Notes: generated by a model not told the origin, from the sequence alone. A DNA stretch of 64,000 bases from Candidatus Poribacteria bacterium (GCA_965218095.1 OZ244587.1:6286490-6350489); one strand, 5' to 3'; counted from the first letter of the stretch, positions 874 to 6,813 are shown. Numbers and translations: made by a program.

Positions 874-1353
874 TTATATCGGCTTCACGCGGAACAACGG
901 CTGATCAAACTCAACAGCAGTGGCGTTTTCAACGAGGATCTCAAGGATTTCACACGGAAAGCCCGGTGTAACCGGGTTAAAGATTTTCATCGCTTCAATC
1001 AAGCATAAGGTATCCTCTTCGGAGACGACCGTCCCGACCTCTACATAGAGTGGCTCTTCCGGTGATGGCGACTGATAAAACAAGCCTGGCATCGGCGATC
1101 GAATGATTTCTCCCGCTTCCTGTGGTAGCTGCACGGCTGAAGAGGACACAGAAGACTCTGTTTGCTGTATTTCCGACGAGGATACCGCATTGGTTTGATG
1201 GAGAAAGGAGGAAGGCACGAAATTACCGTCGCGCCGAACCTTCAAGGTAATTTCGCCCTCGTGCAGGTAGACCTCCATCAGATCCCGGTCCTCCATGATT
1301 TCGCAGACTTGCTGGAGCAGATCTATGGCGGATGACGATTTATTTTCGGGCAT
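874..1353 (-). CDS. accB: Acetyl-CoA carboxylase biotin carboxyl carrier protein
   Basis: EAMK biotinylation motif, SPMPG, VEFDQPLF; directly downstream of efp. Confidence 0.95.
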   Translation of the reverse strand: MPENKSSSAIDLLQQVCEIMEDRDLMEVYLHEGEITLKVRRDGNFVPSSFLHQTNAVSSSEIQQTESSVSSSAVQLPQEAGEIIRSPMPGLFYQSPSPEEPLYVEVGTVVSEEDTLCLIEAMKIFNPVTPGFPCEILEILVENATAVEFDQPLFRVKPI

Positions 1354-1356
1354 GGC

Positions 1357-1914
1357 TTAAACCCTCTCTACATACGTTCCTGTGCGGGTATCAACCTTGA
1401 TTGTCGTCCCATTTCCGACAAACAGGGGAACCTGGACAACGCCGCCTGTTTCCAATGTCGCTGGCTTTGACCCGCCGCTAGCGGTATCGCCGCGCACACC
1501 AGGGTCTGTTTCGACAATTTTGAGTTCTACAAATGTCGGCAATTCGATCGTCACTGGCGTATTCCCGTCAACTTTGACCTTAATCGTTTCTCCTTCCTTG
1601 AGAAACTTTAGCCCATCGCTAACAAGATCTTCTGATAGTGCGTGTTGCTCAAAAGTCTCGTTGTCCATAAAATGCAATAGATTTCCATCACTATACATGT
1701 ACTGCATTTCACAATCTTCAAGACGAACGGTTTCGATCGTATCTTTTGAGCGGAACGTCCGATCGATCACCGCTCCATCGGTGACCCGCTTGAGCTTGGT
1801 GCGAGCGAATGCGCCGCCTTTGCCGGGCTTGACATGTTGACAATTCACGATGATGTAAATAACGTTATTGAGCCTGATGACTAAACCATTTCGTAAATCA
1901 TTGAGCGTTGCCAT
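1357..1914 (-). CDS. efp: Translation elongation factor P
   Basis: HVKPGKGGAF, PGVRGDTASGGSKPATLETG, VPLFV, YVERV. Confidence 0.98.
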   Translation of the reverse strand: MATLNDLRNGLVIRLNNVIYIIVNCQHVKPGKGGAFARTKLKRVTDGAVIDRTFRSKDTIETVRLEDCEMQYMYSDGNLLHFMDNETFEQHALSEDLVSDGLKFLKEGETIKVKVDGNTPVTIELPTFVELKIVETDPGVRGDTASGGSKPATLETGGVVQVPLFVGNGTTIKVDTRTGTYVERV

Positions 1915-1988
1915 AAAACTCTCCTTAAATCAATTATAATTTAATAACGTGTGCAAGCCAAACAAACGCCTTCGACATCGAACGGATT

Positions 1989-2792
1989 TTACAAATCGAT
2001 GCCTGTTGCGCCTATAATGAGCATCGTTTTGGGATTTTGTACATACCCAATAATAGAAGCGTTTTTGATGACGACCGAAGAAGGCACAGATAGTTCGACC
2101 TGTCCATTGACTGCTTTGCTGAACTCAATCGTTTCAAATGCCCGCACGACGTTTTCATGTTTTAATGTACGCCCGCTATTTTCGCCGCTTCGAATATGCT
2201 GTGTAATTTCGCGCTCAACCAAAGTGACATGCAATACACTTTGCCCTGGAGCCTTGGACACCTTAAATTCAACGACCACTTTACCGGAGTCAAGCTTTGC
2301 ACGCGGTTTTAATATCACATTGACCCCGTCGTGCGAACGGGATTGCTTCAACGCTGAGTTGATTGCCGAAGTTCCTCGTCTTCGATCGGAACCCACAAAT
2401 GCTTGCGTTCCATTGACAATCATTTGTGGCGTGTAAATCCGTCCTGAATGCGTAACTTGAGCGTATCTTCTTTGACGGTTTGAATAACGGCTATCACTAA
2501 ATGGGTCCTTCCATCCAAGATAATTCCAGTAATCTACATGAAAAGCCAAGGCAAAAATCTGTTGATTTTCTTTACGGGCGCCCTGCTCGATTTCGCTGAG
2601 AAACTTCTCAGCCGGCGGACAACTGGATCACCCTTCTGATGTAAATAATTCCACGACAGCGAATGGGAGTGGCGCTCGTTGAGCGACAGAATTAGAATCG
2701 TTTCTTCCTGACAATTGAGCTTGAGCACTGCCCCACAGAATCAAAAGTAAGAGTAGGCAGGCAATTTGCGAGAACAAACCTTGAATCTTCAT
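1989..2792 (-). CDS. Exported DUF1223-family thioredoxin-fold protein, probable selenoprotein (TGA 2628-2630 = Sec, UxxC)
   Basis: Signal peptide MKIQGL..AQA; VVELFTSEG-TGA-SSCPPAE continues in frame into LAFHVDYWNYLGWKDPF and YTPQMIVNG; the family motif is ELFTSxGCSSCPPA. Confidence 0.85.
2595..2612 (-). promoter_or_regulatory. Putative bacterial SECIS hairpin
   Basis: GCUGAGA-AGUU-UCUCAGC perfect 7-bp stem; loop starts 23 nt after the UGA, with G in loop position 2 followed by U. Confidence 0.65.
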
Positions 2793-2892
2793 TGTTGCTC
2801 CCTCTTTAGTATAAATTGCTACTCTGAGCAAGGCATCTCACCAAACACGGTCACAAAGCCCTCCGCTTCGTTCAGAGTGATATTGCTTTATA

Positions 2893-3090
2893 TCATCTTC
2901 GTTGAGAACTTCGCATCCTGCGGCGGTAAACCACCAACCACATCACTATCGTGGCTGGTTCCGGGAACGAGTCCGCCGTGAAGTTGTTAAAGTTGAAGCC
3001 GCTACCACTTACATAGGAGAGAACAACCTCCTGTCCAATGGCAACTCTATTATCGGTCGAGAAGTCAAAAACGTCATCTCCAAATCTCAT
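2893..3090 (-). pseudogene. Remnant of a PEP-CTERM-type surface protein C-terminus
   Basis: ...FTADSFPEPATIVMWLVVYRRR: PEP motif, shortened hydrophobic stretch, basic tail; no N-terminal part. Confidence 0.4.
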
Positions 3091-3314
3091 TTCCTAGCTC
3101 CAGTAGGATGTTTTTTTAATTTGAAGTTGCTGCAATTACGTTAAGTTATCCTCAATTCCCTTTTTTGCTACACTATTATTTTGGCATAAAAGAGCAGTAA
3201 AGTCAAGAAGGTTAATCAATGTTTAACGGAAAAATGGAGAAATGTCTTTGGAAGCAACTCGTCCTCGATTAGATCGAAACAGCACGCAATTTGGACGACA
3301 GTCGGCAGATTGTG

Positions 3315-4367
3315 CTATTCAATCACCCCACCTCCTAAACAGATTCCACCGTCATAAAATACAGCAAATTGACCCGGCGCAATCCCCGAATCTTTAGTCG
3401 ATATTCTTACAGCCAGGAGTTTTTCATCGATGGTTTCGATCGCGCAGTCATTCAGATAGGGACCATGACGAATTTTAACATGGAGTTCATGCTTCTCAGG
3501 TTTTCCAGAAATCCAGTTTACATCGGCAACAGTAAATTGATTTCTGGCACACCAATCGTGGTAATCCTTATGAGAAACATAAACGATGCTATTTCCCGTG
3601 TCCTTCTTGACCACATACCACGGACCACCGCTTAATCCTAACCCCTGACGCTGACCAATGGTATAGAACCAAAATCCGCGGTGTTGTCCAAGGACAGCCC
3701 CGGATTCCAGTTCGATAATATCTCCTATCTTTTCGCCCAGATGAAATTTGACGAAATCCGGGTGTTTTATTTTTCCCAAAAAACAGATTCCTTGACTGTC
3801 TTTACGGTCTTTATTGGGTAAATCGAACTTTTGAGCCAGCACCCTGACCTCCTTTTTCCACAGATGCCCAATGGGGAAAAGGATTCGGCTTAATTGCGCC
3901 TGGCTTAAACCCAATAAAAAGTAGGTTTGGTCTTTTACCGGATCTGGGGCTCTTTTTAAGACATATTTTCCGTTAGTTTCTTCAACTTGCGCATAATGTC
4001 CCGATGCCACTTTGTCATAACTGTCGTCGATTTTATTCAAGAACTCACCAAATTTTATGCGCTGATTACAGAAAATATCAGGACTTGGTGTACGTCCAGC
4101 CTTCAGTTCATTCAGGGCATAGGTAACGACCTTTTTATGATATTCTGATTGAAGGGAAACAATTTTTAGGGGTACACCTGCCTGTTCACAAATGGCACGG
4201 GCATACTTCAGATCTGTCTCCCACGGGCACTCACCCAGAAAGGCGAGCTCATCCTCTAACCATATTTTGAGGTAAAAAGCCGTGACATCGTGACCTTCTT
4301 CATTTTTGATTAAATGAAGCGCAACGGAGCTATCTACCCCGCCCGAAAGTAAAACAGCTATTTTCAT
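3315..4367 (-). CDS. mnmA: tRNA 2-thiouridylase MnmA
   Basis: SGGVDS, GRTPSPDIFCN, GHYA, KDQTYFL, DSQGICF, PGQFAVFY. Confidence 0.97.
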   Translation of the reverse strand: MKIAVLLSGGVDSSVALHLIKNEEGHDVTAFYLKIWLEDELAFLGECPWETDLKYARAICEQAGVPLKIVSLQSEYHKKVVTYALNELKAGRTPSPDIFCNQRIKFGEFLNKIDDSYDKVASGHYAQVEETNGKYVLKRAPDPVKDQTYFLLGLSQAQLSRILFPIGHLWKKEVRVLAQKFDLPNKDRKDSQGICFLGKIKHPDFVKFHLGEKIGDIIELESGAVLGQHRGFWFYTIGQRQGLGLSGGPWYVVKKDTGNSIVYVSHKDYHDWCARNQFTVADVNWISGKPEKHELHVKIRHGPYLNDCAIETIDEKLLAVRISTKDSGIAPGQFAVFYDGGICLGGGVIE

Positions 4368-4552
4368 GTGAATCACTTCTGAATTTTTGCACTTTGAAGG
4401 GCAGTACCAGGTGGGCAGAAATGACTGCCACTTCTCGGTTATGCCGTTAGAATCGCGGCGATTGCCCTATGTGCGCCGAGCAAGAACGATGGATACAGCA
4501 GAACGTCCACAGCGGACATGATGCGCCCTTGATCTCCGAATACATCCCAAAA

Positions 4553-5002
4553 TCACTCAGTAGATGCCGATTCCCGCAAAATGTGAATCATCGCATCCAA
4601 CGCGAGATCATAACTATACACGCCGAAACCGCCAATCACACCGACAGAGATGGGGGAAACGTAAGAGTAGCAGCGGAAGGACTCACGCGCATAGATATTG
4701 GAAAGATGGATTTCAACGACAGGAAGATGAACAGCGGACAAAGCATCTCGAATCGCGACGCTCGTATGGGTGTAAGCCGCGGGGTTGATCAGAATGCCCT
4801 CCGCCCAATCAATATTGTCGCCAATGACGGAGACAATCTCCCCTTCGTGGTTTGATTGGCAGATCTTGAGTTCAACGTCCCGTTTCGAGGCAATTTCGCG
4901 CAGGTGTAAATTGATGTCCCCCAGCGTTTGATTACCGTAAATTTCGGGTTGACGTTTACCCAAAAGTTGGAGGTTCGGCCCGTGAATCAGTAGAATCTTC
5001 AT
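4553..5002 (-). CDS. aroQ: Type II 3-dehydroquinate dehydratase
   Basis: HGPNLQLLGKRQPEIYG, QSNHEG, INPAAYTHTS, EIHLSN. Confidence 0.97.
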   Translation of the reverse strand: MKILLIHGPNLQLLGKRQPEIYGNQTLGDINLHLREIASKRDVELKICQSNHEGEIVSVIGDNIDWAEGILINPAAYTHTSVAIRDALSAVHLPVVEIHLSNIYARESFRCYSYVSPISVGVIGGFGVYSYDLALDAMIHILRESASTE

Positions 5003-5006
5003 CTTT

Positions 5007-5663
5007 TCAGTCCCCTTGAGCAAAGTCTTTCGGCTTGAATTTAGAATCGTTCATGATTCTTACCATCCTATCATCCCCCAAACCAACAACGAACAGCCTG
5101 TGTTGGTAGGCAAATCGATCCGCCCCTTCATCGAAACTCACTCCTGCCACAGCGGCATAGATCTGTTTTCCTTTATATTCCGGGAAGAATTCCTCAGATC
5201 GCTTGAGTTCATCAAAGAAATCACGAACATCATCAATTTTTAAGGTGGTTTTGACTTCGATAACAACAACGGCATCATCGTTTTTCAAGAGAAGATCGAC
5301 TTCCATCTGCGTACCGTTACGTGGCTGTTTCATTCTCGGACAGCTTCCTGTCACCCCTATTCCTCTTTCCTGAAAAATCCTTACACTACCTGGTTCAACC
5401 AACGCCTCAATCAGTTTTCCCCATTGACTTGTAAAGAGATCAGCAAGCTCCCTGATTTTTTGATCGGTCTCTTTAAAGAGTTCTCGAAGCTTCTGGAAAC
5501 CCACAACCATTTCCTGATGAAGTAGATTCATCCTTTCATCTCTTTCCCGGAGCTCTTTGGCGAGTCTCTCGTCTGTCTCCCGAAACAATTTCCGAATTTC
5601 ATCAAATGATTGTTGTACATCTTGCTGCATGATAGCTATACTCTCCTGAACCTTGGTTGACAT
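5007..5663 (-). CDS. Coiled-coil plus PD-(D/E)XK nuclease-like protein (DUF3782-like)
   Basis: ETD-repeat coiled coil, WGKLIEALV, EVDLL..VVIEVK motif, AVAGV. Confidence 0.7.
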   Translation of the reverse strand: MSTKVQESIAIMQQDVQQSFDEIRKLFRETDERLAKELRERDERMNLLHQEMVVGFQKLRELFKETDQKIRELADLFTSQWGKLIEALVEPGSVRIFQERGIGVTGSCPRMKQPRNGTQMEVDLLLKNDDAVVVIEVKTTLKIDDVRDFFDELKRSEEFFPEYKGKQIYAAVAGVSFDEGADRFAYQHRLFVVGLGDDRMVRIMNDSKFKPKDFAQGD

Positions 5664-5718: not shown

Positions 5719-6813
5719 TTAGACACTTTTCATGCACCGCGAAATCGCTTTGGTGATTGTTGCATCGGCCACATCGTCGAGGATAACCACTTCACCGATC
5801 CGTGTCGGCAGGATGAGCTGTAACTTCCCGCCCTTTGCCTTCTTGTCGAGGAACATTGTGTCAATGAGTTCCACAGATTGAATCTCTGGCGGAAAATGCA
5901 CAGGGAGCGGCACACGTTGCAAGAGATTTCTTTGCCGTTCCCAATCCGCTGCATCTAGCATGCCCAAATTGACAGCGAGTTGCGCGGCACAGTTCATGCC
6001 GATTGCAACCGCTTCACCGTGTCGGTAGGTGTTGTAATCCGTCAACGTTTCGAGCGCATGACCGAAGGTATGCCCATAGTTCAGTGTCGCCCGTAGTCCG
6101 CTATCTTTCTCATCACTCGCCACGACACGCGCTTTGTCCGCACACGATTGCGCAACAATATCAATTAGGATCGACGCCTCCAAATCAAGGATTTCCTCAA
6201 GATTTGCCTCTATCTGCTCGAACAACGGGGCATCCATAATTACGCCGTGCTTGATAATTTCGACGAGTCCCGACCGAATTTCAGGCGGCGGCAATGTCTG
6301 CAAAGTCGTTACATCAATGAGAACTAATCTGGGTTGATGAAACGCACCGATAAGGTTTTTGCCCTTCGGGTGATTGATCGCCGTTTTGCCGCCAACGCTG
6401 GCATCGACCTGAGCCTGTAACGTCGTTGGGACCTGAACATACGAGATGCCGCGCATATACGTTGCAGCGACGAAGCCGGCGAGGTCTCCAATGACCCCGC
6501 CGCCCAGTGCGATCAGGGTTGAAGCCCTATCCATGCGATAGTCGATTAGTTGATCATGCAGTTTGGCAAACCACTCGAAGGACTTATGTTCCTCACCAGC
6601 AGGAACTTCAACGATACGTGGATCAAATCCAGCCTTCGATAAGCTGCCCAACACCGTTCCACCGTAGCGTTTGCTCACAAATGTGTCGGCAACAATAATC
6701 ACCCTCGGCGATTTTGCTTTCGGCTTTAATAATCCTCCAAGCTGATTCAGGAGACCTTGATCGACAATGATCGGATAGCTATTTTCGCCAAGTTCAACGT
6801 GAATGGATCGCAT
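5719..6813 (-). CDS. aroB: 3-dehydroquinate synthase
   Basis: GGGVIGDLAGFVAATYMRG, VPTTLQAQVDASVGGKT, LNYGHTFGHA, HGEAV. Confidence 0.98.
   Translation of the reverse strand: MRSIHVELGENSYPIIVDQGLLNQLGGLLKPKAKSPRVIIVADTFVSKRYGGTVLGSLSKAGFDPRIVEVPAGEEHKSFEWFAKLHDQLIDYRMDRASTLIALGGGVIGDLAGFVAATYMRGISYVQVPTTLQAQVDASVGGKTAINHPKGKNLIGAFHQPRLVLIDVTTLQTLPPPEIRSGLVEIIKHGVIMDAPLFEQIEANLEEILDLEASILIDIVAQSCADKARVVASDEKDSGLRATLNYGHTFGHALETLTDYNTYRHGEAVAIGMNCAAQLAVNLGMLDAADWERQRNLLQRVPLPVHFPPEIQSVELIDTMFLDKKAKGGKLQLILPTRIGEVVILDDVADATITKAISRCMKSV

Follow-up and report, generated by a model that had tools for sequence, protein, structure and literature searches.

The question raised by this locus is whether a TGA triplet inside a gene of the DUF1223 family, lying at the position where the family encodes the first cysteine of a CxxC motif, ends the protein or is decoded as selenocysteine (Sec). 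The gene occupies the minus strand near the beginning of the window, by which we mean the whole 64,000-nt stretch of DNA analysed here.

A single reading frame interrupted at the motif cysteine

In the ORF list the locus appears as two minus-strand pieces, 2628..2831 (67 aa, ending in ...PFAVVELFTSEG) and 1989..2549 (186 aa), and in the protein collection the gene is stored as two fragments, P0121 (54 aa) and P0001 (186 aa). When 2792..1986 is translated with TGA as U, a single 267-residue frame results, in which the sole TGA is residue 55; the two pieces are thus one frame broken by this codon only, as the preliminary description of the locus had stated. The features of the gene are given below.

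2792..1989, minus strand: whole DUF1223 gene, from ATG (2792..2790) to stop codon TAA (1991..1989), with one in-frame TGA; 267 residues if read through
2798..2804, minus strand: Shine-Dalgarno-like GAGGGAG, 5 nt upstream of the ATG, predicted from sequence
2715..2792, minus strand: putative signal peptide or membrane anchor, residues 1-26 (MK, hydrophobic core, AQA-Q); helix 4-25 in the model, with a predicted cleavage site
2340..2663, minus strand: thioredoxin-fold domain, residues 44-151, predicted from the AlphaFold model and the 2AXO match
2628..2630, minus strand: TGA, the proposed Sec codon (residue 55), which replaces the first Cys of CxxC
2619..2621, minus strand: Cys58 (TGT), putative resolving Cys of UxxC, almost invariant in the alignment
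2612..2595, minus strand: SECIS-type hairpin, a 7-bp stem (2612..2606 with 2601..2595) and the apical loop AGUU (2605..2602)
1995..2321, minus strand: C-terminal beta-sandwich, residues 158-266, Omp28-like or Ig-like, predicted from the model, Foldseek and a weak NF033782 match

The motif of the window protein reads ELFTSEG-U-SSCPPA, with the second cysteine (Cys58) intact. Its only match in a Pfam search is PF06764 (DUF1223), which covers residues 46-252 and the complete profile (1-202 of 202) with an E-value of 6e-58 and 196.6 bits, the cut-off being 30.7; against NCBIfam nothing rose above the cut-off, the best matches being NF033782 (27 bits) and TIGR00411 (19 bits). The local sequence and the PF06764 match also bear out the earlier placement of the TGA at the first Cys of the family motif ELFTSxGCSSCPPA with the second Cys kept; the ELFTSxGCxxCP motif is accompanied in the window protein by the HVDYW, YTPQ and GENxGR blocks of DUF1223. 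Among 63 aligned sequences, E48, L49, S52, E53, G54, C55 (U in the window), S57 and P59 are invariant, as are V86, D87, Y88 and W89, Y120, T121, P122 and Q123, and G203, E204 and N205.

Predicted architecture and mode of action

We have modelled the read-through protein with AlphaFold from a 63-row alignment (pLDDT 89.4, pTM 0.83). In this model U55 sits between a strand (44-51) and a helix (58-74), and the invariant T121-P122 pair could be a cis-Pro loop. A Foldseek search with the model returned the Agrobacterium tumefaciens structure 2AXO (Atu2684) with an E-value of 2.5e-16 and TM-scores of 0.60/0.70, a relationship also found by sequence (E 2e-26, residues 42-243), together with HBP35 (5Y1A, E 3.9e-10) and, more weakly, Omp28 (2R2C) and DipZ C-terminal domains (about 5e-4). 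PMC3091736 had already assigned DUF1223 to the thioredoxin-like clan.

From the motif and the fold, a mode of action may be proposed. The UGA at codon 55 would be decoded as Sec when the downstream hairpin recruits SelB carrying Sec-tRNA(Sec), and the product would be exported or anchored through its predicted N-terminal signal sequence. Sec55 would then act as the nucleophile on a disulfide or sulfenic acid of the substrate, leaving a selenenylsulfide for Cys58 to resolve. An envelope thiol/selenol-disulfide oxidoreductase is most likely the kind of protein that such a motif on such a fold would make.

A SECIS-type hairpin behind the TGA

The preliminary description had reported a perfect 7-bp hairpin with an AGUU loop starting 16 nt downstream of the TGA, and this is what we find at 2612..2595. 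The hairpin, GCUGAGA-AGUU-UCUCAGC, has its stem starting at the 16th base past the TGA (15 nt between), so that 22 nt separate the TGA from the loop. On its own it folds with -11 kcal/mol, a value equalled by 1 of 200 shuffled sequences; within a 64-nt context the fold reaches -25.1 kcal/mol, with a z-score of -2.8. The structure exceeds what chance would give.

The bacterial SECIS model used by bSECISearch, which section 5 of the 2026 review PMC13188914 quotes, allows a loop of 3-9 nt and a stem of 4-16 bp, requires a G among the first two loop bases with G or U after it, and sets a spacing of 16-37 nt and a minimum free energy of -7.5 kcal/mol or lower. The window hairpin satisfies every one of these quoted constraints (a 4-nt loop with G second and U third, 7 bp, 22 nt, -11 kcal/mol).

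Sec machinery and other candidate recoded genes of the genome

The genome, assembled as one contig of 6.35 Mb, was found to contain all four genes of the Sec pathway that the preliminary description had named for a search. These are selA (605.7 bits), selB (353.7 bits), a tRNA-Sec gene (selC) directly behind selB (76.6 bits, and called by ARAGORN as tRNA-SeC with anticodon TCA), and a Sec-type selD (371 bits) which itself has one in-frame TGA. Behind the selD TGA, 17 nt past this codon, there is a hairpin of the same type as that of the DUF1223 gene, the stem again being 7 bp long and the loop AGUU. The selD gene (G000:C1:5448321, minus strand, locus L021, G000 being the window's genome) reads KTCG-U-AAKV around this codon and is a selenoprotein gene in its own right.

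A strict scan of both strands for a TGA followed, at 16-37 nt, by an AGTT loop with 7 of 7 stem pairs gave 37 matches, against 9 to 27 behind other triplets. No more than 3 of the 37 have at least 40 open codons on both sides, and these are selD, an AhpC/TSA gene and the DUF1223 gene; within this genome, then, the read-through frames marked by this hairpin type behind a TGA all belong to redox families and have U at the position of the active-site Cys.

The AhpC/TSA gene (G000:C1:3538764, plus strand; L198:724-1281) reads FWRGQY-U-PKD, matches PF00578 with an E-value of 8e-19 and nothing in NCBIfam above the cut-off, and has its own 7-bp stem with an AGUU loop 16 nt past the TGA. A relaxed scan gave 73 matches, most of them probably due to chance, which include further read-through frames that by eye resemble known selenoproteins, at G000:C1 positions 3662643(-), 1906240(-), 383446(+), 3336357(+), 130914(-), 3498791(-) and 4557714(+). 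Their motifs, again judged by eye, are CSRA-U-HAP (formate dehydrogenase-like), W-U-GFC and TW-U-PLC (thioredoxin-like), IA-U-GGC (heavy-metal-associated), AD-U-GSC, PG-U-NEAGVLG (MoeB-like) and RW-U-IFC. By such motifs the organism may have ten or more selenoprotein genes.

The same genome-wide data bear on a different reading of codon 55, in which the UGA is read as something other than Sec (for example as Cys or Trp by a near-cognate tRNA), or in which translation stops there and restarts to give a CxxC-less protein of 186 residues. No observation of this analysis speaks specifically for such a reading; in general, selenium shortage can lead to cysteine being put in at Sec codons, and an alternative TTG start is available at 2549 for the restart. 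Against these points stand the full Sec machinery and the presence in this genome of a SECIS-type hairpin of selD's type, and in the model a restarted product would have neither the signal peptide nor strand 1 nor the active site. Moreover, this genome uses TGA as an ordinary stop, in fact more often than any other (1,048 of 2,613 long frames), meaning that the codon is not reassigned genome-wide. We consider decoding as another residue, or a restart, improbable, and continue with Sec decoding as the preferred reading.

Sec and Cys forms in other genomes

The DUF1223 family has at least 8,000 homologues. For a census of the codon at the site, 80 metagenome and 80 genome loci were collected with the C-terminal part of the protein as query, and the motif pattern found nothing in 16 of these 160. 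Among 150 motif-bearing genes the codon is TGC in 86, TGT in 62 and TGA in 2, namely the window gene and L042, a metagenome contig. The latter encodes ELFTSQG-U-SSCVPAD and carries the hairpin GCCGACC-AGUU-GGUCGGC in the register of the window hairpin, with 3 of the 7 stem pairs changed on both sides.

We have then searched whole phyla with PF06764, reading through stops, except in the window's own phylum, for which the window protein itself served as query. The results by phylum were as follows.

Window's own phylum: 176 genomes, 2 matching including G000; Sec form in G000, and a Cys form with 36-39% identity in G005
Phylum of the Latescibacterota record: 168 genomes, 13 matching, 13 matches, 4 with '1 TGA'; Sec forms 3 (L189, L190, L191)
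Planctomycetota, the phylum of the Kolteria record: 401 genomes, 38 matching, 40 matches, '1 TGA' in 16 (plus one with 2 TGA); Sec forms 16
Acidobacteriota: 301 genomes, 47 matching, 50 matches, '1 TGA' in 0; Sec forms 0

Besides the window gene, TGA thus occupies the same codon in 20 further DUF1223 genes from at least three phyla, with Cys in 148 genes, and the homologues align TGA with Cys as the preliminary description had expected; no Sec form occurs among the 50 PF06764 matches of the 301 Acidobacteriota genomes. All 5 of the planctomycete Sec-form genomes that were tested had SelB above the cut-off, and both SelB and tRNA-Sec were above it in 3 of 3 Latescibacterota Sec-form genomes.

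A few other genes of the collection are altered in the motif or elsewhere. The fourth Latescibacterota match with '1 TGA' (L216, G300:C106) has CSSW, a TGA 13 codons later and upstream stops, and looks like a decaying Cys form; L215 (G349:C37), in which the motif is missing its N-terminal part and there are 2 TGA codons, looks like a decaying gene. P0007 has CSSS and has lost the second Cys.

Covariation of the hairpin

We have aligned, without gaps, 51 nt around the TGA from the 21 Sec forms including the window (20 distinct sequences). In the helix named above 92.9% of the cells are paired, and 4 of the 7 pairs show compensatory change (13 cells). The covariation score of 0.314, compared with 0.096 after shuffling, was reached by 0 of 500 shuffles, and in slid controls, with the partner moved by 1-3 columns, pairing was 31-51%. 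These shuffle statistics overstate the case, because related genomes are not independent, and an earlier test with 5 Sec forms had been weak (55 of 500 shuffles reached the score), the signal becoming clear only with all 21.

Counted by gene, the stem has 7 of 7 pairs in 14 of the Sec forms, 6 in 4, 5 in 2 and 3 in 1, and 17 of the 21 have an AGUU loop. A bulged alternative whose loop is AGGUU fits the two forms with five pairs; in L211, which has three, the hairpin is shifted. In the same register, one of the 148 Cys forms pairs at all 7 positions and four pair at 6, and AGTT stands at the loop position in 6. The codons of a conserved peptide, A-[ED]-x-[FL]-[LIV]-G, account for part of the pairing, in line with the 5 of 148 Cys forms that have 6-7 pairs. 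The peptide common to the Sec forms is A-[ED]-[EK]-F-[LIV]-G, and compared with the bacterial SECIS consensus, the hairpin sequence of Sec-DUF1223 has the peculiarity that it also dictates this conserved peptide.

Relatives of the window gene and history of the Sec state

In a FastTree tree of 200 rows, the window gene groups with P0002, P0004 and P0086 (74%, 65% and 59% identity), which are N-truncated gene calls that leave the Sec-codon site outside, and the next neighbours of this group are Cys forms. One clade (support 97) unites 15 planctomycete Sec forms and another (91) the three from Latescibacterota, while L042 and L211 stand isolated, so that the Sec forms fall into 5 groups overall. 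By parsimony the Sec/Cys state changes 5 times, at least two of the changes being forced by well-supported branches. Branch support is low (22) around the window's clade, and we therefore claim neither a number nor a direction for the Sec/Cys switches. A single origin of the Sec state was considered and rejected on the 5 tree groups and the two or more forced changes.

The close relative P0122, 60% identical over the first 60 residues, is a Cys form. In a search for N-terminal fragments of P0002, P0004 and P0086 (residues 1-60 as query, shorter proteins, E up to 10), the window's own fragment alone ends in ELFTSEG among the 120 matches listed, and CxxC is present in 119 of these 120.

A remnant of the gene is found at a syntenic locus in G005, a member of the same family. 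There the accB-efp ... aroQ locus (L026, G005:C786) aligns to window positions 882-2099 and 4572-5009 with 77-80% nucleotide identity; the DUF1223 gene is reduced to its last 40 codons, and the rest of it together with mnmA (window about 2100-4571) is absent. This remnant implies that the DUF1223 gene is older than the split of the two genera, and that G005 has since lost most of it.

The TGA in independent assemblies

Four sequencing runs, each from a separate study, supplied Logan contigs that were compared with the window over positions 1900-2900. The TGA at 2628-2630 is unchanged in all four, in agreement with the earlier reading of the codon as TGA and not TGY, and the only differences from the window in these contigs lie at 2514, 2562 and 2579. 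Position 2562 differs in 4 of 4 runs and is synonymous on the gene strand (Q77); position 2579 differs in 2 runs and gives A72T on the gene strand; both changes are outside the hairpin. In the extended 64-nt fold, the change at 2579 turns a G-U pair with the U of the UGA into an A-U pair. One of the four runs spans the whole stretch, is near-identical to it and may be the assembly's own source. Another of the four contigs comes from a metatranscriptome (2451-2815); it shows presence in an RNA library only, which is not the same as proven transcription, and read depth in that run says nothing of the expression level.

These contigs also help to weigh the view that the gene is dead, a nonsense mutation having hit the active-site Cys codon, so that gene callers split a pseudogene in two. 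Callers do indeed split it, into P0121 and P0001, decayed DUF1223 genes exist elsewhere (L215 and L216), and in G005, a genome of the same family, the syntenic gene has shrunk to its final 40 codons. In the window gene, however, the sole interruption falls exactly on the Cys codon, the part downstream of it is 74% identical in protein sequence to P0002, and the contigs of 2 of the 4 runs show one synonymous change and A72T, with no added stops or frameshifts. Furthermore, this same codon is TGA in a further 20 genes spread over at least three phyla, and a covarying hairpin follows it. A pseudogene is, in our judgement, very unlikely. For the idea that the true codon is TGY and the TGA arose in sequencing or assembly, no supporting observation was found. 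It is less credible still, and can practically be dismissed, given that the TGA is kept in 4 of 4 runs even though genuine differences occur at 2514, 2562 and 2579.

On computation from the sequence, the covariation and the genome's machinery, codon 55 would therewith be a Sec codon. We hold it highly probable, for the explanation as a whole, that Sec is inserted at codon 55 through the hairpin and SelB and that the product is an exported protein of a thioredoxin domain plus a beta-sandwich, putatively an envelope oxidoreductase.

Gene neighbourhood and a possible link with MsrA

The window gene lies in a run of same-strand housekeeping genes (1357-1914, 874-1353, 3315-4376, 4553-5023 and 5719-6813, all on the minus strand). 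Pfam identifies efp, a biotin-carrier protein and mnmA among these neighbours, and in the roughly 520 nt between mnmA and the start of the DUF1223 gene there is no recognised gene. Other neighbours, judged by eye from their translations, look like aroQ and aroB. No conserved neighbourhood was found among the Sec-form loci, where the neighbours are LacI and LarA in one case, DUF6772 and GFO/IDH in another, and mnmA and efp in a third. Since the neighbours at the Sec-form loci are unrelated to each other, the context gives no function for the window gene.

Across the wider family, the DUF1223 gene has msrA, the gene for methionine sulfoxide reductase A, directly beside it on its own strand and no more than 1.5 kb away in 13 of 170 loci from several phyla (L037, L045, L072, L100, L129, L148, L149, L155, L171, L175, L183, L185 and L186), and in one protein, P0109, MsrA and DUF1223 are fused, the two domains having no signal peptide between them; msrA is not adjacent to the window gene. 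Because msrA repeatedly adjoins DUF1223 and one fusion exists, MsrA is the sole substrate lead. The adjacency hints at a link between DUF1223 and methionine-sulfoxide repair, which we treat strictly as a lead.

A more far-reaching proposal would be that Sec-DUF1223 is a widespread, overlooked family and the dedicated envelope reductant of MsrA, that it has switched between Sec and Cys several times, and that its SECIS element was carved each time from the same six codons, with the RNA dictating A-[ED]-[EK]-F-[LIV]-G. We regard this full proposal as speculative and rather doubtful. If it were true, the role as MsrA reductant would be the first function for DUF1223.

Relation to known selenoproteins and thioredoxin-fold proteins

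The window protein and the DUF1223 Cys forms, including 2AXO, have in common a full-length match to the profile, the two-domain fold and a hydrophobic N-terminal leader. They differ at the motif, which in 2AXO is VVELFTSQGCASCPPAD, whereas in the window gene the first Cys is replaced by a residue encoded by TGA and a SECIS-type hairpin follows. Other envelope proteins also combine a thioredoxin-like domain with a beta-sandwich, namely HBP35 of Porphyromonas gingivalis (5Y1A) and the C-terminal part of DipZ (2HYX, 5CYY), but these are 10-13% identical, have no Sec and show no sequence kinship to DUF1223.

Selenoproteins with a UxxC motif on a thioredoxin fold are the commonest kind, and some of the catalogued families are periplasmic. 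The earlier designation of the gene as an unusual selenoprotein therefore stands as regards 'selenoprotein' and falls as regards 'unusual', exported members being included in this commonest kind. The secreted thiol oxidoreductase of that description is a proposal drawn from fold and motif. In the catalogued families of Table 1 of PMC13188914 (thioredoxin, DsbA-like, DsbG-like, thiol:disulfide interchange protein and GOS_C), Sec likewise takes the place of the N-terminal Cys of CxxC at the start of helix 1, and many Cys homologues exist; none of the models of these families matches the window protein, and DUF1223 has the extra beta-sandwich. GOS_C was considered as possibly the same family and rejected, as Table 4 of PMC2398784 gives no conserved domain for it and the window protein has no NCBIfam GOS_C match.

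Table 1 of PMC13188914 lists 119 prokaryotic selenoprotein families and subfamilies, four of them from GenBank annotation alone, and PF06764 is absent from that table. DUF1223 is likewise not mentioned as a selenoprotein in the GOS paper (PMC2398784), deep-Sep, BSepDB or the 2016 ISME J survey, whose supplements could still name it, and our search of the literature found no publication naming DUF1223 together with selenoprotein. The earlier suspicion that DUF1223 is not among the classical selenoprotein families accordingly holds for the lists checked, including the 119-family catalogue as given in its Table 1. By computation, the UxxC selenoprotein gene is real; as far as can be told the family is new to the checked lists, while its kind, a thioredoxin-fold UxxC protein made through SelB and SECIS, is well known.

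Implications for the family and its organisms

The understanding of Sec decoding is unchanged by this finding. The 21 aligned hairpins do offer a clean case of an RNA element and a peptide that are co-constrained within the same codons. For annotation, DUF1223 is an added selenoprotein family, and one frequent enough to matter, the Sec form accounting for 16 of the 40 matches (about 40%) in 401 Planctomycetota genomes. Gene callers for which TGA is a stop will break or truncate the other Sec forms as they did the window gene, and the selenoproteomes of Planctomycetota, Latescibacterota and the window's own phylum are undercounted. Finally, the Sec form marks the DUF1223 motif as catalytically redox-active, which is a first functional statement on a family that is also present in plants and fungi.
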